Shown here: positions 1 through 26,518 of the stretch, piece by piece | Numbering within the stretch: the stretch's first letter is position 1 | Layout of the letters: the number at the start of each line of letters is the position of its first letter | DNA from: Nanobdellota archaeon | Lineage (GTDB): Archaea; Nanobdellota; Nanobdellia; Pacearchaeales; GW2011-AR1 | Assembly (NCBI GenBank): GCA_022703705.1 | Contig: JAKLDD010000003.1 | Coordinates: forward strand, 1 to 51,766 | Length of the DNA: 51,766 bases | Direction of reading: 5' to 3' | Notes under the pieces: generated by a model | Told to the model about the DNA's origin: nothing | The model's input: the letters and a program-made list of their open reading frames with translations, nothing else | Databases searched by the model: none | Program-made: the position numbers and the translations under genes

Positions 1-1
1 A

Positions 2-655
2 ATTTGAACCATGGGAATTAAAGCAGTTTCCACAATTTTTTCCGCAAACTTCATCACATTCATGCCCTAAAGAAGAACAAGTGTCCACACAACTAATTAC
101 ACATTTTCCTAAACTGCACACCATCTCTCCAGAACACTCTCCACAGCTGCCCTTGCACCCGTTATCTCCACAAATTCTATCTGTGCAATTGGAAGTACAT
201 CTATAAATATCAGAAGAAGAATCCCAAGTATACCCTACATCTCCTTTAATCTCCCTTCCAGACTTTAACGCAATTATTGGAAGCACTGTGATATTCTGCA
301 AATTGTTTGGATTAATTTTTTTAAAAGTAAAATTAAAAGACTTCATCCCAAATTCTTCAATTGAAATTTTTTCTTTAAAAGATTCTGATTTTGAACCATC
401 ACAAAATTCAAAATTTAATCCAACAAATGTTCCCCCACCCAAATTTCTTTTAAGAGTAAAAAAAAGCTCATTATCGATTATTTGAACATTTTCAATTTTT
501 AAATTAAAAGAAGAATCTCCCAAGGGAACAGAACCCCCCCTTATAAAACTATTAATTGCAAGAAAAAGAATACCTACTGAAGCAAAAAAAGAAAAAATAA
601 TTAAAATTGCTATTATTGAACGAGGTATTCCCCTTTTATCCTCTTTTAACTGCAT
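2..655 (-). CDS. Partial (3' end cut by window edge) membrane-anchored Cys-rich secreted/surface protein
   Basis: Absent from the ORF track because it runs off the window. My reverse-complement translation from ATG 655-653 stays open to position 2. It starts MQLKEDKRGIPRSIIAILIIFSFFASVGILFLAINSF (N-terminal TM anchor) and ends in a CxxC-rich module, CTSNCTDRICGDNGCKGSCGECSGEMVCSLGKCVISCVDTCSSLGHECDEVCGKNCGNC. Confidence 0.6.
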   Translation of the reverse strand, partial: MQLKEDKRGIPRSIIAILIIFSFFASVGILFLAINSFIRGGSVPLGDSSFNLKIENVQIIDNELFFTLKRNLGGGTFVGLNFEFCDGSKSESFKEKISIEEFGMKSFNFTFKKINPNNLQNITVLPIIALKSGREIKGDVGYTWDSSSDIYRCTSNCTDRICGDNGCKGSCGECSGEMVCSLGKCVISCVDTCSSLGHECDEVCGKNCGNCFNSHGSN

Positions 656-712
656 TAGATAACAAATAAAAATGTATTAATAAATATACCTAAAATGTAT
701 TAAAAATAAGAT

Positions 713-976
713 TTATTTTAGCTTTTTAAAGTCAGATTCTATTAAATCCAAATCTTTGGTTATTTCTAAAATAGCATCATTTAATGCTTTTTTAGCTGCT
801 TTTCCTTTTGTTTTAACGAGCATAATTGGGTTTTTTGTTATGTGTTCTCTTTTCCAAGCAGCAAAAGTTACTGAAGAGTCTTTATTGAGATATACTCTTA
901 AAATTTCCACTAAAGTAAGATTATCTGATTGAAACTCTATTTCTTCCTTGGAATTTTTAAGAATGTTAATTTCCAT
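713..976 (-). CDS. rpoL: DNA-directed RNA polymerase subunit L (Rpo11)
   Basis: 87 aa. The pattern MEINILK..EIEF..DNLTLVEILRVYL..D..V.FAAWKREH....P.MLVKTKG matches archaeal RpoL/Rpo11 in size and layout. Confidence 0.8.
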   Translation of the reverse strand: MEINILKNSKEEIEFQSDNLTLVEILRVYLNKDSSVTFAAWKREHITKNPIMLVKTKGKAAKKALNDAILEITKDLDLIESDFKKLK

Positions 977-1010
977 AATAAATTAGAATAAAATTAGTTT
1001 TTAAAGCTTA

Positions 1011-1796
1011 TTATTTATCATTTTCACCAAATAAAATTTCATCTGTTTCTTCTTTGGTAATCTCTTGTTCATCTTCAGAAGATTCTTTTTTATTTTCATC
1101 TTTCTTCTTTCTTTTAAAAAATGAAAAAATCCCTTTTTCCTTTTTTTTAGTCATGTTCTGCAAATCTGAAATAGTAAGTGCATTGGTAGTTTCTTCATTA
1201 AATTTAGCATCTTTTTCAAAATCTTCTTTTAATTTTTGCTTGTTTAAATCTTCTAAACTTAATCCAAACCCCTCTTTAAAAAGTTTAATCTTAAAATAAT
1301 CCTCAAGTTTTTTAACTAATGTATCTGATGTGTTTACAATATGCCCTTCTTCAGCCATTCTTATTGCAATCTCAGATTCTCCAATATATTCGGCTAATTG
1401 TTTTTGAGAAATTTTTTTGGACCTTCTTGCCATTTTAATCGCCCAGTGAAAGTTTTCAATTAAATCGGTTCTTTGTTCAGAATTAATTGAGACTTTTTTT
1501 GCAAAATTCTCATCAACAATATCTTTTAAAGTTTTATTCTGTCTTTGTCTTTTAAGTGCTTCTTCTCTTTCTATTATTCTCCCCTTATGCTTTTCAGGAT
1601 CAAGATGCGCCATTGATGAAAGTCTTTCATAAACTGTTTTTACTTTTTCTGGTCTATCAAGATAATCTTTTCCAATTAATGGAAATTCTTCTACCTCATT
1701 ACACTTCTTACAAATTTTAACAAGTCCTTTTGAAGAAATAGCATCAAACAACATTTCTTTTTCATCTGAAACACCGCATCTAATACATTCTACCAT
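1011..1796 (-). CDS. Zinc-ribbon + XRE-type HTH protein (MBF1-like) with K/E-rich C-terminal extension
   Basis: N-terminal CIRCG...CKKC zinc ribbon. Central HTH ISQKQLAEYIGESEIAIRMAEEG followed by LVKKLEDYFKIKL, as in archaeal MBF1. Confidence 0.45.
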   Translation of the reverse strand: MVECIRCGVSDEKEMLFDAISSKGLVKICKKCNEVEEFPLIGKDYLDRPEKVKTVYERLSSMAHLDPEKHKGRIIEREEALKRQRQNKTLKDIVDENFAKKVSINSEQRTDLIENFHWAIKMARRSKKISQKQLAEYIGESEIAIRMAEEGHIVNTSDTLVKKLEDYFKIKLFKEGFGLSLEDLNKQKLKEDFEKDAKFNEETTNALTISDLQNMTKKKEKGIFSFFKRKKKDENKKESSEDEQEITKEETDEILFGENDK

Positions 1797-1860
1797 TAAA
1801 AAACAAGAAAATTCCCCTTTTTTAAGATTTAGATAGTGAAAAATATAAAGAACTAATAAT

Positions 1861-2559
1861 TTATGGCTTTAAAATTATAATTTTTTTTACTTCTTCAGGA
1901 TTGAATATTTGTTCTTCAAGGTCTTCAAGAGTAGTGATTTCATCTAAAACAAGAGATTCATCAATAATTAAAGAGGGTGATTGGATTATATTATAACTTT
2001 CTTTAATCATATTTACAGAGCCTAAATCCAAATTAGCTGCTATTGGAAGCAAAAGAATTTTTTCAGAATTTTTTCCTTTCAAATCCATTAAAATCAAACT
2101 AAATACTGTCTGTTTTGATTTAACTTCCACATCTTTAGAAGAATAATCAAAAAAATACAGAACAGTATGAAAATCCTCCCCACATCTATCTCTTAATTCC
2201 AATGATTCTAACCAAAGATTAACTCTCAACAAATCATATCTTTTATGAAGAATTTTTCTTTGTTCTTCTGTAAGTTTAGACTGGGCGCTATTTTCTTCAA
2301 ATTCCAACGCTTCTGCATAAATTTCATCGGCAAAATCAAATAGATTTTGTTTTGCACTCTCACAACTTAAATTAAGTCTCCCACTTAATTGAGAAGTTTT
2401 TATTTGTTGGTCTAAAAAATCCACTTCTGAACTCCTAATTAAAAAATCAGATTTATTAACATTAGAAAGCTCTATGTAAAATCCCAAAATAAGCCCAGCT
2501 GCAAAAACAAAGATAGTTACTATCAAAGCTTGCCAAAATGCGTTTTTACTATTTACCAT
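1861..2559 (-). CDS. Hypothetical protein with N-terminal TM anchor
   Basis: 232-aa ORF with an N-terminal hydrophobic helix (ALIVTIFVFAAGLILGFYI). No recognisable catalytic motif. Confidence 0.5.
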   Translation of the reverse strand: MVNSKNAFWQALIVTIFVFAAGLILGFYIELSNVNKSDFLIRSSEVDFLDQQIKTSQLSGRLNLSCESAKQNLFDFADEIYAEALEFEENSAQSKLTEEQRKILHKRYDLLRVNLWLESLELRDRCGEDFHTVLYFFDYSSKDVEVKSKQTVFSLILMDLKGKNSEKILLLPIAANLDLGSVNMIKESYNIIQSPSLIIDESLVLDEITTLEDLEEQIFNPEEVKKIIILKP

Positions 2560-2560
2560 T

Positions 2561-3805
2561 TTACCACGAATATTTTTTTATTGCGAGTTTATACAATGAA
2601 CTAATCATCACCAAAGGATAAATCATTAGGTACAAGGTCAAAAAGAAGATGAGATTAAAAAGATTTATATTCTTGAGATTAAGTTCTTTCATAGTCATCA
2701 AAGCAAACAAAGTATAAAAACACCCCAATAAAAATAAACTTATCCCAAAGAAATTTAAAATAGTTGGATTAAAACTAAGAGAAATTAATCTGGTAACTGC
2801 TTCATTTGCAACAATAGAATAATGAGTTGAAAAATAAGTTAATAATAAACTTCTAGTGATTAAATATGTAAATAAAATAATTCCTATAACCCCAATAAAT
2901 AAAGACATGCTAAAAAAGGGTATAACAAACATTCCAAGCATATTTTTTCTGAGAGCCCATTTTTTATATTTTAAAATTGTTTGAGTCCCTCCAATATTCC
3001 ACCTAACTCTTTGTTTCCACCATCTCTTAAATGTTTTTGGGGTAACAGTATAAATCTTTGCATCTAAAGACATTCTGGCTTTATATCCATGTGACATCAT
3101 TCTCCAAACAATTTCAATATCCTGAGTTAGATTTTTTTTATCAAACAATCCAATTTCAAGCAAGACTTTTTTTCTATACAATGCAAATGGACCGGGAGTA
3201 ACATACACAGCATCAACGTAATCCAAAAGTTTTCTTGCAAAACAAATAACAACATATTCAAGATATTGAAGTTTTTGAGCAAAACTATGTGCCTCTTTTG
3301 CTAAAACAGCTCCAGTTACTCCCCCAATTTCCTTATCTTTTTGCAAAAATCCAATCATTTTAAGCAAGGCATCTTTTTCAGGGTAAGAATCTGCATCTGC
3401 AACTGCAATATAATCAAATTTTGCTGCTTTAATTCCAATATTTGTAGGTTCTGCTGCTCCTCCGGAATTTTTTTTATTTACAATTAATCTAACGTTCTCA
3501 TATTTTTCAGCATAAGTTTTCACAATTTCAACAGAATTATCTTTAGAGCAATCATCAACAATAATAATTTCAAGCATATCTTTTGGATAATTTAAATTTA
3601 AAAGATTATCTATTGCTTTTCCAATATTTTCCCCCTCATTATAACAAGGCATAACAATACTCACAGGTTCTGGTTTGCCTTCATGATAAAAAAACATTTC
3701 TTTTCTGTGCGGGAAATAAACTATAATCATCAAAACAAGCATATACAATCCTATAAAAGTATAAAAAAAGAAGATAAAATCAACAAAATTCATTTCATTC
3801 TCCAA
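2561..3805 (-). CDS. Family 2 glycosyltransferase, processive (cellulose/chitin/NodC-like) membrane enzyme
   Basis: VSIVMPCYNEGENI, IIVDDCSKDNS, ADADSYP and the QxxRW motif (QRVRWNIGG), flanked by N- and C-terminal TM helices. Confidence 0.8.
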   Translation of the reverse strand: MENEMNFVDFIFFFYTFIGLYMLVLMIIVYFPHRKEMFFYHEGKPEPVSIVMPCYNEGENIGKAIDNLLNLNYPKDMLEIIIVDDCSKDNSVEIVKTYAEKYENVRLIVNKKNSGGAAEPTNIGIKAAKFDYIAVADADSYPEKDALLKMIGFLQKDKEIGGVTGAVLAKEAHSFAQKLQYLEYVVICFARKLLDYVDAVYVTPGPFALYRKKVLLEIGLFDKKNLTQDIEIVWRMMSHGYKARMSLDAKIYTVTPKTFKRWWKQRVRWNIGGTQTILKYKKWALRKNMLGMFVIPFFSMSLFIGVIGIILFTYLITRSLLLTYFSTHYSIVANEAVTRLISLSFNPTILNFFGISLFLLGCFYTLFALMTMKELNLKNINLFNLIFFLTLYLMIYPLVMISSLYKLAIKKYSW

Positions 3806-3871
3806 AAATAATACTAAATTTATTCATTTTATTAATTCGAATTTTCTTTTTTTAAAGATAATTGTGATGAA

Positions 3872-4477
3872 TTATTCTTCTTTAATTCTATTAATTTCTT
3901 CCTCTTCAACCTCTTTTTCAGCAAGTTCAATTTCGCGATTTAATTCATCGCTTAATTTTGGGGGAGATGTTCTTTCACTTTCAGAAATACTAAAATAATC
4001 ATAAAAATCATCACTTAGACTTAATTCATGCGTGTGTCCTGTTTTTTTCTTTTTTATTAAATCCAAATCAGAAAATTTTTTTATATGGTCATATGCTTTG
4101 TTTCCGCGTATTTTTATTATAACAGATTGTTTTATTGGCTGTTTAAATGCAATTATTGCAAGAGTTTCCTGTTCTGCTTTTGTAAATTCAGAACTCCCTG
4201 TTGCAAGCTTGTTTATAATGTGAGAATATTCTTGTCGAACATCCATTTTCCACAGCCCATTTTTTTCAATAATTTCAATTGCTAAATCATTTTTTTCATA
4301 TTTATCTTTAAGCTTATCAATTAATCCCCGAATAAGTATCGGATTTAAATCACTTAAAGAAATCAATTCTTGCATACTCAAAAATCTTCCTGAAATAAAA
4401 AATACTGCTTCTAAAATCTTCAAATCTTCATTTTCTTTTGCTTCATCAATCTCTTCTATTGTTTTGCTTCTAACCAT
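3872..4477 (-). CDS. scpB: Segregation and condensation protein B (ScpB)
   Basis: LEAVFFISGRFLSMQEL and TKAEQETLAIIAFKQPIKQSVIIKIRG are the two ScpB winged-helix signatures. Confidence 0.7.
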   Translation of the reverse strand: MVRSKTIEEIDEAKENEDLKILEAVFFISGRFLSMQELISLSDLNPILIRGLIDKLKDKYEKNDLAIEIIEKNGLWKMDVRQEYSHIINKLATGSSEFTKAEQETLAIIAFKQPIKQSVIIKIRGNKAYDHIKKFSDLDLIKKKKTGHTHELSLSDDFYDYFSISESERTSPPKLSDELNREIELAEKEVEEEEINRIKEE

Positions 4478-4507
4478 AATAAATAAAATAGGGGGGAGTT
4501 TATAAAA

Positions 4508-6415
4508 TTAATCAGATTTGAGATAATTTGAATTAAAAATAATCAATAAAAAAAATCCAAAAATGCTCAAAAAAATAGAAAAATAATCAAGAAAATTAGT
4601 TTTATAATAAATCAAAACCCCATTAGAATTTTCTTTAGGATAAATCGCCATAACACCTGGACCAACTTCTTTAATATTCAAAACCTCTCCAGAAGACAAA
4701 TCTTTTGCTCTCCAATTCTTATGATAAAATTCTTTAAATAAAACAACATCATCTCCATCAAAATTATCATAAGTTATTTTCAATTTATCAGGATGAACTC
4801 TTTGAACATTAGATTTTTTTATTTCTCCAAAAGCATCTTCATTTAAATTATCTACTAAAGAAATTATTGGTTTTGCATCCAAATATTCAAATAAAACAAA
4901 ACTATATCCTTTTGGATTGAATTGTTTAATAAGTTTAAATCTGTTATCATTTTCAAATTTTTCTATGAAGTCTACATCCTCATTTGCTTCAAAATATTTT
5001 ATCCCAAACCAATCAAGATAATATATAGATTTGTTTATTTCTTCAGATTCCCAAATGGTTTTAATAAAATCTCTATGAATATCTATATTTAACATACCTA
5101 CATCTTGGTATCCAAAAGTATGCTGAACGTTCGGCATAAAATAATTAATTGTCTCTCCAAAGACATATCTTGAAGTACCAAAACGATAATTAGAAAACGC
5201 GTTTTCAATTGGAAAATCTGAATCGAGAATTATTTCTTGTATAATTTCATACCTGCTTCCTTCCCTACAATAAGAATATTCATTAAAATTTTTATTTATA
5301 ATGGTAAAATTCCAAAGGATTCCGAAAAATAGAATTATCAATAATAAAAACAAGAGTATTTTCTTTGATTTTTTGATTTCATTAACAATCAAACCAAGAA
5401 AAATAGCCAATAAGATGGAAAAAGGTAAGATTATTCTAACAGGATCCATTCCAAAAGGGTAATGATTGCTTAATCCTCCAAAAAGCAGAAATGCAAAAAC
5501 AAATATCGACAACAAAATAAAAAGTAAAAATTGTTTTTTCCACAATTTTTTAAAAAAGAAAATTACCAGAGAAAAAACAAATAGAAAAGAGAGAATTCCG
5601 ATTCCACCTGCCTGCAATCCCCAACAACACTCATCAAATCCAAATAAAAATTGAATAGAAGGGACATATCCAGAAGAAGTCTCAGAAGAATTAGAATAAA
5701 AAATAAAAGGAATAAACCAAAAAGATGCTAATAAAACTGGAATTCCTCCACAAATTAAAATTTTTTTAATATTTTTTAAATTAATGCCTGTGACTAAAAA
5801 ACGAAGAATCATTAAAACTCCTATAAGAAAACCGATTAAGATATGAGTTAGAATACCTATAAAAAAAGTAAGACAATACAAAACAAAAAATTTCTTTTTT
5901 CTTTCTTTAATAAATAGTTCAAGAAAGTATAATGAAAAGGGCAAGGCCCATAATGCTGAAAAATATGGCAAATTTCCTGTAGCTATCCAATAATACGAAA
6001 TACTCAAAACAGTTAAGAAAATTAATCCAGAAAATAAAGCAATTTTCTTATTTTTAGTTAAATAATCTAAAAGCAAATATATTCCAAAAACTGCAAAAAG
6101 CAAACTTAAAAAACAAATTAAATTTGAAACAAAAAAGATATTAGAAAAAATTAAAGAAAAAAAGGCTACAAAATAATAAAACAAAGGAGAATACAATTTT
6201 AAAAATAAAGTTCCAGAATACCAGGACATATCCCAATTAGCAAAAGGGTATTCTAAAATATAAGAAACTTTGCTTAAATGACCCAAACTATCTAATCCTA
6301 ATGGTAAATTTGAAAATAAAGGCTTATAAAATAAAAAAAAAGTGAATCCAAAAAGAATCAAAAAATAAATCCAATTTTCCTTGAAAAACTTATTCATAAA
6401 GAATAAAGAACACAT
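4508..6415 (-). CDS. Large polytopic membrane protein, possible GT-C-type glycosyltransferase
   Basis: 635 aa with more than 10 predicted TM helices followed by a soluble C-terminal domain. It lies inside a glycosylation cluster. An alternative ATG at 6397 (MNKFF) is possible. Confidence 0.5.
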   Translation of the reverse strand: MCSLFFMNKFFKENWIYFLILFGFTFFLFYKPLFSNLPLGLDSLGHLSKVSYILEYPFANWDMSWYSGTLFLKLYSPLFYYFVAFFSLIFSNIFFVSNLICFLSLLFAVFGIYLLLDYLTKNKKIALFSGLIFLTVLSISYYWIATGNLPYFSALWALPFSLYFLELFIKERKKKFFVLYCLTFFIGILTHILIGFLIGVLMILRFLVTGINLKNIKKILICGGIPVLLASFWFIPFIFYSNSSETSSGYVPSIQFLFGFDECCWGLQAGGIGILSFLFVFSLVIFFFKKLWKKQFLLFILLSIFVFAFLLFGGLSNHYPFGMDPVRIILPFSILLAIFLGLIVNEIKKSKKILLFLLLIILFFGILWNFTIINKNFNEYSYCREGSRYEIIQEIILDSDFPIENAFSNYRFGTSRYVFGETINYFMPNVQHTFGYQDVGMLNIDIHRDFIKTIWESEEINKSIYYLDWFGIKYFEANEDVDFIEKFENDNRFKLIKQFNPKGYSFVLFEYLDAKPIISLVDNLNEDAFGEIKKSNVQRVHPDKLKITYDNFDGDDVVLFKEFYHKNWRAKDLSSGEVLNIKEVGPGVMAIYPKENSNGVLIYYKTNFLDYFSIFLSIFGFFLLIIFNSNYLKSD

Positions 6416-6454
6416 CTATTTATAAAAGTTAATAATCTTTTTATAAATATCAAA

Positions 6455-6850
6455 ATGAAAATTCCAAAAATTGTTAAAAAAATTTTCTTTTTTGGAGCCA
6501 CAGGGGGAATTGCTACATTAATAGACCTTCTTTTTTTTAATTTATTTTTTATAATCTCTTCGATGTTTGTTTTATCAAGAATCCTGGGAATTTTAATTTC
6601 TATGATATTCAATTTTACTTCAAATAGAAATATAACTTTTAATGCGAGAAAAGGAAAAGTGCCTAATCAAGCAATTAAATTTTTAATTTTGTATGGCATT
6701 TCTATGGGGGCAAATGTTTTAACCGGAAAATTTATTTTGTCTCTATTGGAAGAATCTTTGTTTTCTGCAAATATTGCAGCAATTTCGGGGCTGGCGGTTT
6801 CAATACCAATAAGCTTTTTTGGATTAATGTTTTGGGTGTTTAAAGAATAG
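6455..6850 (+). CDS. GtrA-family membrane protein (glycan-lipid translocation)
   Basis: 131 aa with 4 TM helices. FFFGATGGIATLIDLLFFNLF and NFTSNRNITF match the GtrA family pattern. Confidence 0.7.
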   Translation: MKIPKIVKKIFFFGATGGIATLIDLLFFNLFFIISSMFVLSRILGILISMIFNFTSNRNITFNARKGKVPNQAIKFLILYGISMGANVLTGKFILSLLEESLFSANIAAISGLAVSIPISFFGLMFWVFKE

Positions 6851-7537
6851 TCTATATTTTATTAATGATAGAATTGAATTAATTCCCTTAAGAGTAGTAA
6901 GGTGTGAACCCACACAATCCTTCCAAGAAATAGGAAATTCTTTTATTTTGTATTTTCTTTTTTTACAAAGATATAATAAATCAACATCAAATTCCCAGCC
7001 TTTTTCTGTTAAATTTTTTGAAAGAAATTTAGCAACATCTTTTTTAAATAATTTTGCCCCACATTGAGTATCTTTAAATTTAAGCCCAAACAAAATCCTA
7101 ACAAAAATGTTAAATAAAAAACTGCTCGTTCTTTTTTTAATTTCTCTTTTTGGAAAAATTTTAGCTCCTTTCATTTTTCTAGAAGCAATTATACCATCAA
7201 ATTCCCCAATATTTTTGTATAATTTGTAAAATTCTTCAGGAGAAGTACTTTCATCAGAATCAACAAACCCAATTAAATTTCCTTTTGCCAATTCAAATCC
7301 CTTTATTATAGCCCCCCCTTTTCCAACATAACAGGGAATATTATAAACAAAAATATTTTTCTTATTAAAAGAAAATTTCTTTACGATTTCAAAAGTTTTA
7401 TCTGAGCAATTATTTGGAATTACAATAAATTCAAAAGAACTTTTTAATTTTTCTTTAAAAAAATTATAATAATTTTCTAAAATAGGTATAATTCTTTTTT
7501 CTTCATTATATGCAGGGAAGATTATTGATAACTTCAT
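6824..7537 (-). CDS. Family 2 glycosyltransferase (dolichyl-phosphate hexose synthase-like)
   Basis: MKLSIIFPAYNEEKRI, a DxD-like motif in GFVDSDESTSPEEF, and a size typical of Dpm1/AglK-like enzymes. Confidence 0.75.
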   Translation of the reverse strand: MKLSIIFPAYNEEKRIIPILENYYNFFKEKLKSSFEFIVIPNNCSDKTFEIVKKFSFNKKNIFVYNIPCYVGKGGAIIKGFELAKGNLIGFVDSDESTSPEEFYKLYKNIGEFDGIIASRKMKGAKIFPKREIKKRTSSFLFNIFVRILFGLKFKDTQCGAKLFKKDVAKFLSKNLTEKGWEFDVDLLYLCKKRKYKIKEFPISWKDCVGSHLTTLKGINSILSLIKYRLFFKHPKH

Positions 7538-7625
7538 ATAATATTATAAAATTAAGATATTAAAAGAATTTGCATCCTTATCAATAATTATTTAACTATA
7601 AAAAACATGAAAAAATGGTAAAGAA

Positions 7626-8183
7626 ATGAAAAGAAAGAGAGTAAAAAAAAGAATAAAAAGTAAGAAGAGAAAAAATAAAAGAAATTTTTTATATATTATC
7701 TTGCTAATTTTACTTACTCTGATTTTAATTCTATTTTGGGTAAGATTGGTATCCCCAACAGAAATAGATGATGTTACTCCTGGGATATCTTGCCCCGAAA
7801 TTGAGATTTATAATCCGGATATTTTATATGTAATACCGAATTTTGAAAACAATCCAATTTCAGAAAATGCTGAATGGTGTGATTATATTTCTTCACTTAA
7901 CAAAACCTTAAGAATGCACGGAATAAAACATACTTACAAGGAATTTTTATATAATGAACTTTCTCAAGAAGAGTTAGACTATGGAATTTCAGAATTTGAA
8001 AAATGTTTTGGGTTTGTTCCAAACAGTTTTAAATCCCCTCAACTTGAAACTTTCTATGAAAATAAACAATTAATAAAAGAGAATAATTTAAAATTCATGT
8101 CAATATTTAATCAAATAACTCATAAAGTTTATCATTGTGATGATTCTACTTTTCCATACAATAAAGTGATTAATCTTTTCTAA
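7626..8183 (+). CDS. Membrane-anchored hypothetical protein (possibly DUF2334/deacetylase-like)
   Basis: Basic N-terminus plus TM helix. LRMHGIKHTYKEF resembles the HGxxH..EF motif of DUF2334. Weak call. Confidence 0.35.
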   Translation: MKRKRVKKRIKSKKRKNKRNFLYIILLILLTLILILFWVRLVSPTEIDDVTPGISCPEIEIYNPDILYVIPNFENNPISENAEWCDYISSLNKTLRMHGIKHTYKEFLYNELSQEELDYGISEFEKCFGFVPNSFKSPQLETFYENKQLIKENNLKFMSIFNQITHKVYHCDDSTFPYNKVINLF

Positions 8184-8206
8184 ATAGAATTTAAAATTCA
8201 GATTTT

Positions 8207-9733
8207 TTAAAATTTAAATCTAAGCAAAGCGCCAATTCCAGATAAATTGAAAAACTGCCTGCCCTCTTCTGTATCCGTTGAGACCATCTCAACTTTAGCT
8301 CCAGTATCATCTGCAATCTTTTTAAGTTCTTTTATTATATTTCTATCACAATCTTTTGATAGAAGCAAAGTATCCACTGCCCCGTATTCAAGTGCTTTCC
8401 TTACTGGGGATTCCTTATAAACTACAAAATCTGGTTTCTCTCCCAATGTTTCAAAAAACTTTTCCATTAATTTTTTTTCATAAACAATTTCCTGATTTGC
8501 TAGAATATCCTGCGATTTTTCAACTAACTCTTTTAAACCAGATTCATCACTCCCCCCAATATCAATTTTCCCAAGAACTTTTTTTTGCAAAAGAGTTGGC
8601 AAATATTCTCCATCTAAAAATTCATCTTTTGTAGGAATTGGGCCTCCAATTAAAATTCCCTTTAATTTTTTATTTTCATAAAAAAGATTTTTCATCTCAT
8701 CAGCTATTCTTTTATAAAATTCTTTGGTTAATCCTTCTGTTATCCTGTGAAACCTTTGAGAAGAATTATGAACAACAACGTCATTAGCAAAAAACTCACC
8801 ACATTGAACTTCAATATCTATTAAATTAAATTTACCCTTTTTTATCTTAATATCTTTAATAGCGATTTTTTCTCCAAAATTTTTCAATAAATAATCTCCT
8901 GTTTTTAATTCCTCTGCAGGAATTTTATCCACCTTTATAGTGCGAGTAATTTTATTCTTTGACCAGTTATTATTACGATCATAAATAAAAAAAAGATGAT
9001 CAGAAGAACATTCAATAGTGCTATTGTCTTCTAAAATAATTATATAAAGCAAATTTTTTTCAACTTCCCACCTTTTTAATACTTTATTATAAAAATCATG
9101 TTCTTTATCCATATGATAGGAAGAAATATCATCTCCTACAGCAACCTCATTTATAAAAATTTTGCCTTTATCTTGAACAACTACAGTAGTATCTGGACTT
9201 AAACACTGTCCACCTGCTCTTACCTTACTAGGAACTCCTGAAGTCATTTTTTGCAAAACTTCTATTCTTTTACCTTCCAAAATTCCTATTGCAGCTTCTT
9301 TTCTATCCATTACAAGCAATGCATAAATCTCTGATACTTCAAGCATCTCTTTTAATGCATCAAGAACAAATTCCTTATCACATCGATATAATCGTGATTT
9401 TAAAGGCATTGGAGGTTCAATACCCCAAATCTGTAAATCATCCTGCCCTTCTATTTTTGAAATATTTCCACAAAATATAGCCATCCCATTTTCAGGATTT
9501 CTCTTCAAATCTTTAATATATCTGACAATTTTATCCAAAGCATCCACTACATTTTTCCTTGTCGAACTGGATTTAATATTTTTAGCAGTGGATTTTTCAG
9601 CTTCAATTTGTTTTTGCACTGAAACAGCATCATAATCTGCAGGAATATAAACAGTAATAAGTTCTGTATGTCTTCCCTTGTGCTTGCTTAATTCTTCCAG
9701 CAAAATCTCTAATTCATATTTTGAAATTGCCAT
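8207..9733 (-). CDS. prf1: Peptide chain release factor aRF1, interrupted by a mini-intein
   Basis: NIKS motif (TAKNIKSSS), YRCDKEF and GGQ (VRAGGQ). The extein resumes with SSQRFHRITE after a 147-aa insertion. The C-terminal domain is typical of aRF1. Confidence 0.9.
   Translation of the reverse strand: MAISKYELEILLEELSKHKGRHTELITVYIPADYDAVSVQKQIEAEKSTAKNIKSSSTRKNVVDALDKIVRYIKDLKRNPENGMAIFCGNISKIEGQDDLQIWGIEPPMPLKSRLYRCDKEFVLDALKEMLEVSEIYALLVMDRKEAAIGILEGKRIEVLQKMTSGVPSKVRAGGQCLSPDTTVVVQDKGKIFINEVAVGDDISSYHMDKEHDFYNKVLKRWEVEKNLLYIIILEDNSTIECSSDHLFFIYDRNNNWSKNKITRTIKVDKIPAEELKTGDYLLKNFGEKIAIKDIKIKKGKFNLIDIEVQCGEFFANDVVVHNSSQRFHRITEGLTKEFYKRIADEMKNLFYENKKLKGILIGGPIPTKDEFLDGEYLPTLLQKKVLGKIDIGGSDESGLKELVEKSQDILANQEIVYEKKLMEKFFETLGEKPDFVVYKESPVRKALEYGAVDTLLLSKDCDRNIIKELKKIADDTGAKVEMVSTDTEEGRQFFNLSGIGALLRFKF
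8765..9205 (-). mobile_element. Class 1 mini-intein (147 aa, no homing endonuclease domain) inserted directly after GGQ of aRF1
   Basis: Codon TGT at 9205-9203 gives Cys1 (CLSPDTTVVV, block A). ECSSDHLFF matches block B (TxxH-like). The insertion ends FANDVVVHN (blocks F/G) with Asn at 8767-8765, and the +1 extein residue is Ser. Confidence 0.85.
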
Positions 9734-9770
9734 GATTAAACGATGAAAAAGTAGATTTTAAAGTTTGGGG

Positions 9771-10427
9771 TTAAGATAAATAATTCCATACTGGACTAAA
9801 CTCATCAGGATAAAGTACAAGCATTTTACACATATTAACATATTCATAACCTTCTTTTAGAATATTAGAGAATTGAGAATAAGAATTTGATTTAAATATG
9901 TTTAATTTACCTTCCTTTCTAAATATATGCTCTTGATTTACAAATTTTCTCTCTTTGCAATTAAATTTATTATAAAACAAACCAATTCCAGAAGGAGTAA
10001 CACATAACCCGGAGAAACCAATTATTGTTAACTCTTTATTTACTTTTCTTAAATTTTGGATAACTTCATTCAAACCATTTAATGAATCTTTATAAAAATC
10101 TTTTTTACCAGATAATCTTTCAATATGATAAATATGCAATCCAATTTCTTTATCCCTTGAATTATCAAAAAGGGTTTTGGAATTTAAATCTGCCTCAGAT
10201 AACTTTCCACTAATCAATTTATTCCAACCATTTTTATTTAAGGGTATTGTAATACACATTCCCACAAGTTCTCCTTTGTCATTTTCAAAAATCATTCCAA
10301 ATTCTGGATTTTTTTTATACCAATTACTTAAAATCTCTGATGTCACAGGATTATCAGTAGGATAAACTTTTTTATCAAGTTTAAGAAGCAATTCATAATC
10401 TTTTTTAGATATTGAACGAAATTTCAT
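9771..10427 (-). CDS. Hypothetical protein, possibly GNAT-like acetyltransferase
   Basis: 218-aa ORF. ELVGMCITIPL...IGLHIYHIE has a weak GNAT-like layout. Confidence 0.3.
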   Translation of the reverse strand: MKFRSISKKDYELLLKLDKKVYPTDNPVTSEILSNWYKKNPEFGMIFENDKGELVGMCITIPLNKNGWNKLISGKLSEADLNSKTLFDNSRDKEIGLHIYHIERLSGKKDFYKDSLNGLNEVIQNLRKVNKELTIIGFSGLCVTPSGIGLFYNKFNCKERKFVNQEHIFRKEGKLNIFKSNSYSQFSNILKEGYEYVNMCKMLVLYPDEFSPVWNYLS

Positions 10428-10482
10428 CCAACCTTAAAGAAAACTAAATGGGTTTATAAAATTTGGTTAATTAAAAAATAAT

Positions 10483-24442: not shown

Positions 24443-26518
24443 ATGGAAAACGAGGAAGGATATTCAGAAGAAGATTATTCGTCAAGTATGCTGGAAAATG
24501 CTCCAAAAAAGAAGCCAAAATCAGAAGATTTAATAATTGAAGCTAAAAATTTCTTTAATTTTAATAAAGAAGATTTAGGGGAATCAATACGAAAAAGGAC
24601 AAATGTTGTTTTTCTTGATTTTATGAAACTTACAGAATTTTCAAATAAACTCTCTGATGAAATAATTATCAATCCAGAAGAAACCTTAAGCCTTATAGAA
24701 CAAGGAGTTGAAGAACTAGGTTTAGTAAAAAATGTACGAATTAGATTAAAAAATCTTTCAGATGCGCACCAAATTAAAATAAGAAATATACGTTCAAAAC
24801 ATCTTAATGAACTTATAATCCTAGAAGGAATAATAAGGCAGGCATCAGATGTTCGTCCACAAGTAGTAAATGCAAAATTTGAATGTCCAAGCTGTGGAAC
24901 AGTTATTTCTGTGTTACAAATTGAAAAAAAATTCCGGGAACCAAGCAGATGTTCCTGTGGGAGAAGAGGAGGATTTAGATTAATTTCAAAAGATATGGTT
25001 GATACTCAAAGATTAGTTGTAGAAGAACCTCCAGAATCTCTTTCAGGAGGAGAACAGCCAAAAAGAATTAATGTTTTTGTCAAAGAAGATTTAGTTGAAC
25101 CAAAAATGGAAGATAAAACAACTCCTGGAGCAAGAATAAAAATAATAGGAATATTGAAAGAAGTTCCTGTTCCATTAAGCACAGGAGGATTATCCACCAG
25201 ATTTGAATTAGCTGTTGAAGCAAATAACATAATTCCAATGGAAGAAACATTTGAAGAATTAGATATAACAGATGAAGATGAAAGACAAATTCAGGAACTT
25301 TCTGAAGACCCAAAAATATTTGAAACATTAGCCAAAAGCATAACTCCAAGTGTTTGGGGATATGATGAAATAAAAAAAGCATTAGTTTTGCAATTATTCG
25401 GGGGAGTTCAAAAGCAAATGTCAGATGGTTCAAAATCAAGAGGAGATATACATATTCTTCTTATAGGAGACCCGGGAGTTGCAAAAAGCGTAACTTTAGT
25501 TTTTATGTCAAATATTTCCCCAAAAGGAAGATATGTTGTAGGAAAATCAACATCAGGGGCAGGTTTGACAGCAACTGTTGTGCGTGATGAATATCTAAAA
25601 GGATGGAGTTTAGAAGCAGGAGCAATGGTTCTTGCAAATAAAGGGCTTATATGCATAGATGAATTAGAAAAAATGGACCCTCAAGACAGAAGTGCCATGC
25701 ATGAAGCAATGGAACAGCAAACAGTAACAATCTCCAAAGCAAATGTTCAAGCTACATTAAAAGCTCAAACATCTGTCCTAGCTGCAGCAAATCCAAAATT
25801 TGGAAGATTCGATCCTTTTATGCCAATACCTCAACAAATTGATTTACCCCCAACACTAATAAATAGATTTGATATAATATTTACATTAAGGGATATTCCA
25901 GATAGAAATAAAGATGAAAGAATTGCAACACATGTTTTAAAAGAACATCAGAAAGAAACAAAAGAGGTTTTAATTGATTCTAATTTATTCAGAAAATATG
26001 TCGCATATGCAAAGCAAAAAATAAATCCAAAATTAATCCCAGAATCTGTGGAAGAATTAAAAAAATTTTATATTGAACTGAGGAATAAACCAGTTACATC
26101 TGAAAGTGCAATGCGCCCAATACCAATTTCAGCAAGACAATTACAAGCATTAATTAGAATGTCAGAAGCATCAGCAAGAATGAGGTTAAGTGAAGAAGTT
26201 TCAAAAGATGATGCAAAAAAAGCAATTGAATTAATGACATATTATCTTACCCAAGTAGGTTATGATTATGAGTCAAAGACTTTTGATATTGACAAAATAT
26301 CTGGGAAATTTTCCTCATCACAAAGAAACAAAATACTCATGGTAAAAGAAGCAATAACCGCTCTTGAAAGCAAAATGGGAAAAATGATTCCGTATGAAGA
26401 AATTGAAAAAGAACTTGAAGAAAAGATAAGTAAAGATGAACTTGAAGAGGTAATAAACAGATTAATTAGGGATAATGAGATTTATCGCCCAAAAAAAGGA
26501 TACATTGGAGTTTTTTAA
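24443..26518 (+). CDS. mcm: MCM replicative helicase
   Basis: Zn finger CPSCG...CSCG, Walker A GDPGVAKS, Walker B CIDELEKM and arginine finger NRFDIIF, plus a C-terminal winged helix. No intein. Confidence 0.95.
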   Translation: MENEEGYSEEDYSSSMLENAPKKKPKSEDLIIEAKNFFNFNKEDLGESIRKRTNVVFLDFMKLTEFSNKLSDEIIINPEETLSLIEQGVEELGLVKNVRIRLKNLSDAHQIKIRNIRSKHLNELIILEGIIRQASDVRPQVVNAKFECPSCGTVISVLQIEKKFREPSRCSCGRRGGFRLISKDMVDTQRLVVEEPPESLSGGEQPKRINVFVKEDLVEPKMEDKTTPGARIKIIGILKEVPVPLSTGGLSTRFELAVEANNIIPMEETFEELDITDEDERQIQELSEDPKIFETLAKSITPSVWGYDEIKKALVLQLFGGVQKQMSDGSKSRGDIHILLIGDPGVAKSVTLVFMSNISPKGRYVVGKSTSGAGLTATVVRDEYLKGWSLEAGAMVLANKGLICIDELEKMDPQDRSAMHEAMEQQTVTISKANVQATLKAQTSVLAAANPKFGRFDPFMPIPQQIDLPPTLINRFDIIFTLRDIPDRNKDERIATHVLKEHQKETKEVLIDSNLFRKYVAYAKQKINPKLIPESVEELKKFYIELRNKPVTSESAMRPIPISARQLQALIRMSEASARMRLSEEVSKDDAKKAIELMTYYLTQVGYDYESKTFDIDKISGKFSSSQRNKILMVKEAITALESKMGKMIPYEEIEKELEEKISKDELEEVINRLIRDNEIYRPKKGYIGVF

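Follow-up and report, generated by a model that had tools for sequence, protein, structure and literature searches.

A predicted class-1 mini-intein at the GGQ motif of the archaeal release factor aRF1

Introduction

How could a release factor work if its catalytic loop is interrupted by 147 further residues? The question is raised by the gene for aRF1, the archaeal class-1 release factor, in contig JAKLDD010000003.1 (GenBank assembly GCA_022703705.1), which is assigned to a Nanobdellota archaeon. The stretch analysed here, called the window throughout, is 51,766 nt long (positions 1 to 51,766 of the forward strand). In it, the aRF1 reading frame carries an insert directly after the GGQ motif, which the original prediction, made from the letters of the window, took to be a mini-intein.

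Release factors carry the GGQ motif on the tip of domain M, and it has to be brought into the peptidyl-transferase centre. The motif is described as universally conserved and essential (PMC2613156).

Results

An insert within the aRF1 gene

The aRF1 precursor gene in the open reading frame (ORF) list occupies positions 8207–9733 on the minus strand, with its stop codon at 8207–8209, and encodes 508 aa including the insert. The whole protein scores 391 bits against the TIGR03676 aRF1_eRF1 profile (cut-off 234.7) and contains the Pfam domains eRF1_1, eRF1_2 and eRF1_3, the second of which is cut in two by the insert. It also has the aRF1 motifs TAKNIKS and LYRCDKEF and, after conceptual splicing, GGQSSQRF. 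On these matches the host protein is identified as aRF1. No second aRF1-like ORF was found within the 52 kb window.

The N-extein (amino acids 1–176; 9206–9733, minus strand; 528 nt) holds the NIKS and YxCxxxF stop-codon recognition motifs and ends at the catalytic GGQ (codons 9206–9214). The C-extein (amino acids 324–508; 8207–8764, minus strand; 558 nt including the stop codon) runs from SSQRFHRITE... to the C-terminus and contains the rest of eRF1_2 and eRF1_3. Both are exactly as long as the corresponding parts of alleles that lack an insert, here called empty alleles. The insert itself (8765–9205, minus strand) consists of 147 stop-free codons, precursor residues 177–323 (CLSPDTTVVV...FFANDVVVHN), preceded by ...PSKVRAGGQ and followed by SSQRFHRITE..., so that the insertion point falls between Gln176 of GGQ and the next conserved Ser. 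An in-frame insert of this kind is far beyond chance. Its subtraction leaves 361 aa (508 − 147), the length of intein-free aRF1 orthologues.

On both sides of the insert the window aligns collinearly with a JGI contig, L001, at nucleotide identities of 92.5% over 1–8761 and 91.8% over 9207–9740, and in this BLASTN comparison the insert is the sole gap. When the 441 nt were removed exactly, the gene gave an ungapped 1086 nt alignment to its intein-free counterpart (89% nucleotide and 95% amino acid identity), and the window extein shares 95–95.6% amino acid identity with the empty alleles P0004–P0006. The reading frame described in the original prediction, GGQ↓C...HN↓SSQRF (arrows mark the junctions), was confirmed to the base, both in the 508 aa ORF and in the translation of 8765–9205, and its claim that removal of the 147 residues restores the conserved core was borne out by the gap-free alignment over 361 aa.

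Family, fold and splice-site residues

When the insert alone was used as the query, it scored above the cut-offs of the Pfam profile Hint PF01079 (31.8 bits; cut-off 29.7) and of TIGR01445 intein_Nterm (29.1 bits; cut-off 24.5), and below that of PF07591 (PT-HINT; 23.6 against 27.7). Pfam and TIGR profiles gave no match to an endonuclease domain within the 147 aa insert. A word-index search with the intein alone returned no matches, which reflects the sensitivity limit of that method, and an exhaustive profile search was used. A profile built from an alignment of 27 aRF1 mini-inteins (A1) matched about 20 solved inteins in the PDB. The best was the gp41-1 intein (2.7e-15), and the others included PhoCDC21-1, Aes PolB1, AceL NrdHF, NrdJ-1, PI-PfuI, KlbA, TvoVMA, DnaX, DnaB and TFIIB.

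An AlphaFold2 model based on the A1 alignment is all-beta with a single disordered loop, and has a predicted local distance difference test score (pLDDT) of 90.8 and a predicted template modelling score (pTM) of 0.83. Foldseek comparison of the model with the PDB returned HINT-fold proteins only, with template modelling (TM) scores of ~0.75–0.87 to the gp41-1, NpuDnaB, NpuDnaE, Prp8, RecA and RadA inteins. Bacterial intein-like (BIL) and Hedgehog Hint domains were also among the matches. The best single-sequence PDB match of the insert was the Tetrahymena BIL2 domain (1e-6), which also ranked first in Foldseek.

Among proteins other than aRF1, those closest to the aRF1-intein profile (P0121, P0123 and P0125–P0131; 125–150 bits) mostly contain at least three tandem Hint/PT-HINT repeats. 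Some of these tandem-Hint proteins are fused to an S8 peptidase with PKD, to Tim44-like or to radical-SAM domains.

Residues characteristic of class-1 inteins were located in each of the expected blocks, all on the minus strand. Block A is represented by Cys1 (TGT; 9203–9205), the nucleophile of the N–S acyl shift, and block B by S67-S-D-H70 (8996–9007), an (S/T)xxH motif in which S67 and H70 are invariant and D69 is at least 90% conserved among the 27 mini-inteins; its first position is Ser here, and Thr is commoner among inteins. Block F contains D130-I-E132 (8810–8818), with the conserved Asp of class 1, and block G ends in His146-Asn147 (8765–8770; Asn codon AAT, 8765–8767), where cyclization of the Asn frees the intein. 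The first C-extein residue, Ser+1 (TCT; 8762–8764), is the trans-esterification nucleophile. It is found in every intein-bearing allele, and Ser also follows GGQ natively in empty alleles. The positions invariant in A1 are C1, W46, S67, H70, D130, E132, F138, V145, H146 and N147. The predicted catalytic set is therefore complete for class 1. A class-3 assignment was ruled out by Cys1, by Asp rather than Cys at block F position 4 (D130) and by the lack of a block-G Thr and of a WCT triad.

One segment sets the window intein apart, a 12-residue loop insertion at intein residues 77–88 (8942–8977, minus strand; RNNNWSKNKITR), which is missing from the 42 other mini-inteins in the alignment. It is predicted to be disordered, residues 80–87 being the only segment of the AlphaFold2 model with pLDDT below 50. 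The possibility that the loop is an endonuclease remnant was rejected, as allelic LAGLIDADG domains enter ~20 residues further on.

Considering the insertion, the Hint signature, the modelled fold, blocks A, B, F and G and the +1 nucleophile together, we assign the insert as a genuine class-1 mini-intein, consisting of a HINT domain without a homing endonuclease.

Occupied and empty alleles

The 120 best homologues of the window aRF1 all share the insertion site. The site is empty in 48, with GGQSSQRF contiguous, while 44 carry a mini-intein of 133–149 aa, 26 carry an intein of about 430–432 aa with a LAGLIDADG domain (PF14528) and two carry a 511 aa intein that combines LAGLIDADG with an Xre-type helix–turn–helix (HTH) domain. 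PF14528 was found in homologues of 790–873 aa.

Cys1 and the terminal His-Asn were present in 71 of 71 resolved intein-bearing homologues, and inspection by eye of one more, P0072, brought this to 72/72. Ser+1 accompanies them in all 72 occupied homologues and also at 58 loci in GTDB. The 58 loci come from a scan of one genome per species with a single block-F/G peptide pattern, and are a lower bound. In all 58 species the intein lies in aRF1, at GG(Q/W)↓C...HN↓S. The inserts comprise 25 mini-inteins, 32 of about 430 aa and one of 502 aa (L049), and the carriers are all DPANN archaea labelled Woesearchaeota, Pacearchaeota, Nanoarchaeota or Diapherotrites/Iainarchaeum. The exhaustive profile search returned at least 22 aRF1 clusters (50% identity) among its top 150 matches, with inserts of 133–510 aa. 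Far from being rare, the aRF1 intein occurs widely in public metagenome data from DPANN archaea. Automatic JGI names for such records include 'eRF1/intein/homing endonuclease', and many NCBI records are named 'hypothetical protein'.

Four further parts of the original prediction can be set against these data. The Cys1, (S/T)xxH, HN and Ser+1 signature that it listed is present, with SSDH as block B, and is invariant in 72/72 homologues. Its proposal that no homing endonuclease is encoded agrees with the lack of a domain match and with the allelic relatives, which have LAGLIDADG at the canonical position. Comparison with Hint profiles, which it had suggested, gave scores above the cut-offs for PF01079 and TIGR01445. 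The survey of relatives that it had also suggested revealed both empty and occupied alleles, with no substitution of Cys1, Asn or Ser+1 in any of the 72.

A homing cycle at the GGQ site

The endonuclease of the larger alleles has two LAGLIDADG motifs, LGYYLGDG and GFFDAEGY, and is inserted after GDYL(I/L) in the alignment. The equivalent point in the window intein, judged from alignment of the mini-inteins with the 431 and 511 aa inteins, is at about residues 108–112, after GDYLL (8870–8884, minus strand), and is empty. In the 511 aa inteins of P0011 and P0016, an Xre-type HTH (PF01381) directly precedes the LAGLIDADG domain, presumably serving the homing endonuclease as an extra module for DNA recognition.

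As empty alleles, mini-inteins and inteins with LAGLIDADG are all represented, the site displays the full homing cycle in DPANN archaea. The window intein would have descended from LAGLIDADG homing inteins that target this codon in these archaea, and, as it has no endonuclease, it is placed at a non-mobile stage of the cycle, predicted to be unable to home by itself.

An endonuclease-free copy seems to have moved nonetheless. The inteins at two GTDB loci, L003 and L010, are 80% identical (dS 0.57), whereas the C-exteins are 58% identical with saturated dS, and this intein seems to have passed between diverged hosts, perhaps with the help of a trans-acting endonuclease or by recombination. This contrast and the combination, in the window, of a near-identical extein with a divergent singleton intein point to past mobility. 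Either the intein was gained in the window lineage or it was precisely lost in the close relatives; both may be considered.

The codon used for Ser+1 differs with the state of the allele. In the 141 resolved alleles of the set L001–L146, which are related to one another, TCN was found in 61 and AGY in three of the 64 intein-bearing alleles, and TCN in 29 and AGY in 48 of the 77 empty ones (Fisher's exact p ~1e-13, a value overstated by the kinship of the sequences). No such split was seen among the same alleles at the −1 (CAA/CAG) and +2 codons. TCN and AGY cannot be interconverted in one synonymous step. This suggests either that AGY alleles are poor endonuclease targets that stay empty (target-site immunity) or that homing has co-converted the flanks. 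The 90 nt around the junction in the window (8720–8764 and 9206–9250) share 79–83% identity with the closest empty alleles, compared with 84–90% for the rest of the gene, and the differences from L001 at the junction are synonymous throughout. Co-conversion from another donor could have produced this diverged flank.

Splicing and the alternatives to it

Splicing would be expected to follow the class-1 route. The 508 aa precursor would fold and Cys1 would form a thioester via the N–S acyl shift, which the hydroxyl of Ser+1 would attack (trans-esterification). Cyclization of Asn147 with the help of His146 would then release an intein of ~17 kDa, and an O–N shift would produce a native peptide bond in a 361 aa aRF1 whose ...RAGGQSSQRF... 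loop is intact. As this loop has to extend into the peptidyl-transferase centre, a precursor with a 147-residue domain at the GGQ tip is expected to be inactive. Selection would therefore keep the intein splicing-competent, and the inactivity of unspliced aRF1 would be the reason that endonuclease-free mini-inteins are kept intact. We infer autocatalytic splicing from the intact catalytic residues and the ratio of non-synonymous to synonymous substitution (dN/dS) of ~0.15 in the family. Termination would then depend on splicing, provided that this is the sole aRF1 of a genome of which 52 kb is visible. We put at roughly 0.85 the probability that this is a class-1 mini-intein able to splice and that its host is the only aRF1.

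Several observations weigh against this reading. The Pfam profile Intein_splicing (PF14890) was just missed (33.2 bits; cut-off 35.8), no other intein is more than 40% identical to that of the window, the nearest relative included, and the 12-residue disordered loop of the window intein is its own, found in no aligned relative. With 52 kb of the genome visible, a second, intein-free aRF1 is possible elsewhere. The median dN/dS, 0.15 for the mini-intein and 0.18 for the C-extein, comes from ten usable pairs of related mini-inteins that belong to other family members, not to the window intein, and in which dS is near saturation. On these values, the aRF1 mini-inteins as a family are judged to be under purifying selection.

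The intein could instead be a regulatory one, splicing only under certain redox (Cys1), temperature or ligand conditions and so gating, after translation, the supply of active release factor and with it the capacity for termination. Its location in the most function-critical loop would suit such a role, as would the retention of endonuclease-free mini-inteins under purifying selection in many lineages, and the extra cysteines C66 and C135 could in principle pair with Cys1 as a disulfide. There is also precedent among archaeal inteins in the conditional splicing reported for RadA (PMC5238726, PMC5790916, PMC11409957). However, the lethality of a splice-dead allele explains retention equally well, neither C66 nor C135 is conserved among aRF1 inteins, and relatives with a 95% identical extein live without the intein, which is thus dispensable. 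We consider regulated splicing unlikely. Loss of splicing altogether, leaving a relic in a non-functional copy while another aRF1 outside the window does the work, could be entertained as 52 kb of the genome is visible and the intein stands apart from the others in both its divergence and its unusual 12-residue loop. Yet the catalytic residues are all intact, the ORF is uninterrupted, the gene stands at the conserved position of the orthologue, between an aminoacyl-tRNA synthetase (aaRS) gene and scpB, and the exteins are 95% identical to empty alleles in amino acids and 89% in nucleotides, so most changes are synonymous. DPANN genomes are, moreover, small and usually have one aRF1. A relic is very unlikely.

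The top rank of Tetrahymena BIL2 among single-sequence PDB matches, and the PT-HINT signatures of the tandem-Hint proteins that are most similar outside aRF1, raise the question of a Hint/BIL-type autoprocessing domain that cleaves without ligation, giving two fragments, or that stays in place permanently, giving a decorated aRF1. But a GGQ loop that was split or decorated would be unable to function, and the insert possesses every intein element, the +1 nucleophile and the terminal His-Asn among them. It is also located inside a conserved protein whose orthologues run uninterrupted across the site, and allelic copies bear homing endonucleases, which are intein-defining; the autoprocessing explanation is highly improbable. 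As the window is a metagenome-type contig, an assembly or gene-calling artefact, in which a chimeric contig would have joined an intein fragment into aRF1, should also be considered. However, at least 58 independent GTDB species genomes and dozens of protein clusters (NCBI, JGI, ENA and Logan) have this codon interrupted in frame by the same kind of insert, and both flanks are collinear with L001, which reduces the chance of an artefact to a negligible one.

A subclade of aRF1 with GGW or GGF

At L003 and L010 (2501–2926 in each), the intein is found in the context ...KVGGW↓C...HN↓SQQRY instead of GGQ. Shifted junctions that would restore GGQ, GG↓WC...HNS↓QQRY, were rejected because Gln cannot act as the +1 nucleophile, because splicing there would shorten the loop by two residues, and because GGW and GGF forms exist without any intein. 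Among the 120 best matches to the spliced L003 extein, GGW occurs without an intein in 13 and with one in 10, GGF in 15, all without an intein, and GGQ in 80 without and two with. Outside this census, P0191 is a GGF allele with a 498 aa intein. As GGW and GGF both occur with and without an intein, replacement of the catalytic Gln is independent of the intein. The GGW and GGF forms (proteins P0271–P0299, P0147 and P0191), in which the motif is followed by SQ(Q/A/G)RY, make up a Woesearchaeota-type subclade whose nearest GGQ relatives are about 60–64% identical.

By position, these genes are orthologous to GGQ aRF1. Comparison of L064 (10001–11518) and L065 (10001–11092) with L066 revealed a shared order of valyl-tRNA synthetase (ValRS)-type aaRS, aRF1, ScpB, two ORFs of ~470–500 aa, GT2, ..., MTS methyltransferase. 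A paralogue at another locus is unsupported given this common neighbourhood. The genes flanking GGW loci use all three stop codons. The downstream MTS methyltransferase was considered as the GGQ methylase Mtq2, but it carries NPPF, not NPPY, and is present in GGW and GGQ loci alike, and so is uninformative. A second aRF1, one that bears GGQ, may be present elsewhere in the GGW and GGF genomes.

Bacterial release factors with Gln mutations retain substantial hydrolysis in vitro, and it is the backbone of this residue, not its side chain, that positions the water. An aromatic substitute for Gln is for this reason not chemically absurd. In the aRF1 and GGQ literature, which calls GGQ universally conserved, we found no report of GGW or GGF aRF1. 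This subclade may be more novel than the intein, and, if such an aRF1 is truly the sole release factor, it would challenge the stated universality of GGQ.

Genomic context

The window is an AT-rich archaeal fragment (29% GC) in which the gene order around aRF1, class-I aaRS (ValRS-type), aRF1, DUF2334, GT2, ..., ScpB, is conserved in DPANN archaea. It also encodes MCM, an ATP-dependent DNA ligase, MetRS, two class-II aaRS and GatD/GatE. MCM (24443–26518) is a classical intein host, and here is of ordinary size (691 aa) with no Hint-family match. Searched with the Hint profile, the window contained no further inteins, which makes aRF1 the sole intein-bearing gene seen there, and ARAGORN found no tRNA genes in the 51.8 kb.

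Between the ValRS-type aaRS and aRF1 (9741–10482) lies a 218 aa ORF (9771–10427, minus strand) without a Pfam match. The collinearity of L001 stops at 9740, and different genes are found upstream in L001. In L062 the aaRS directly adjoins aRF1, and in L061 a 125 aa ORF alone separates them. From these comparisons, 9741–10482 is interpreted as a local rearrangement or insertion beside the intein-bearing gene.

The related DPANN contig L065 (1–1915 and 19796–20746) encodes an 831 aa Cbf5/TruB-type pseudouridine synthase (DKCLD, TruB_N and PUA) with Intein_splicing and LAGLIDADG_3 matches, and close to it a free-standing ORF with a weak LAGLIDADG_3 match. This synthase is apparently another unusual intein host.

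Discussion

A translation termination factor can now be added to the list of intein hosts. Inteins as a rule settle where an essential protein is most constrained, in its catalytic motif, and aRF1 is a very clean instance of this. If splicing is required, every polypeptide release in these organisms would hinge on prior protein splicing. The series of empty, mini, LAGLIDADG and HTH-plus-LAGLIDADG alleles is suited to the study of the homing cycle, target-site immunity and extein–intein co-evolution. An unrecognized intein could also make an essential marker look missing or aberrant when DPANN genomes are annotated.

A more far-reaching proposal is that splicing is a post-translational gate on the supply of release factor, controlling global termination, and that homing elements have long shaped the catalytic loop. 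Such shaping would connect the TCN/AGY dichotomy at Ser+1 with the GGW and GGF subclade, though we regard the proposal as quite unlikely.

We found no paper describing an aRF1 or eRF1 intein in the literature on inteins and release factors or on DPANN archaea, and release factors go unmentioned in the main text of Novikova et al. (2016) and in those of two eukaryotic intein surveys. A paper on Bodo saltans virus that mentions both inteins and release factors is unrelated. This agrees with the earlier impression that aRF1 is outside the classical hosts. The novelty seems to lie in the host and the site; the element itself is an ordinary class-1 mini-intein.

The hosts given by Novikova et al. 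include aIF2/IF-2, RFC, MCM, PolB, RNR and Top6B, and core translation components are said there to 'contain few inteins' (PMC4760082). Like the archaeal inteins tabulated in that work, the window intein is a selfish element in the most conserved motif of an essential information-processing protein. Unlike them, it has a host without an ATP/GTP-binding P-loop, and its target is the GGQ loop of peptidyl-tRNA hydrolysis.

The nearest systems in host and site are the allelic LAGLIDADG inteins (P0003, P0007 and P0013, and the HTH versions P0011 and P0016). These share the codon and blocks A, B, F and G (CLSPDT..., S-x-x-H, IDIET and VHN↓S), but the window copy lacks PF14528 and is 27–29% identical to them in local BLAST alignments.

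Among characterized inteins, the closest relative is gp41-1 (PDB 6QAZ/6RIZ), likewise a class-1 HINT splicing domain without an endonuclease, which has a TMt of 0.86–0.87 and a root mean square deviation of 2.3–2.4 Å to the window model and is 28–29% identical. The gp41-1 intein also has Cys1 and Ser+1, and is naturally split, in a phage-like helicase gene. Compared with this cyanophage-like intein, the window intein is contiguous, at 147 aa, and lies in an archaeal translation factor. The Ssp and Npu DnaB mini-inteins (PDB 1MI8 and 4O1R) share the HINT fold (TM 0.73–0.82), with a bacterial helicase as host and 17–20% identity. They have Cys1 and Ser+1 and use class-1 chemistry, and the Ssp version was engineered by deletion of the endonuclease, whereas the window intein is naturally mini. 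The BIL/PT-HINT domains, such as BIL2 of Tetrahymena BUBL (6Y75) and the Clostridium thermocellum BIL (2LWY), have the same fold as the window intein. BILs are not known from conserved sites of essential proteins or with endonuclease-bearing alleles, and most often cleave without ligation. The window insert, in contrast, occupies a conserved site for which both empty and endonuclease-bearing alleles exist, as is characteristic of inteins.

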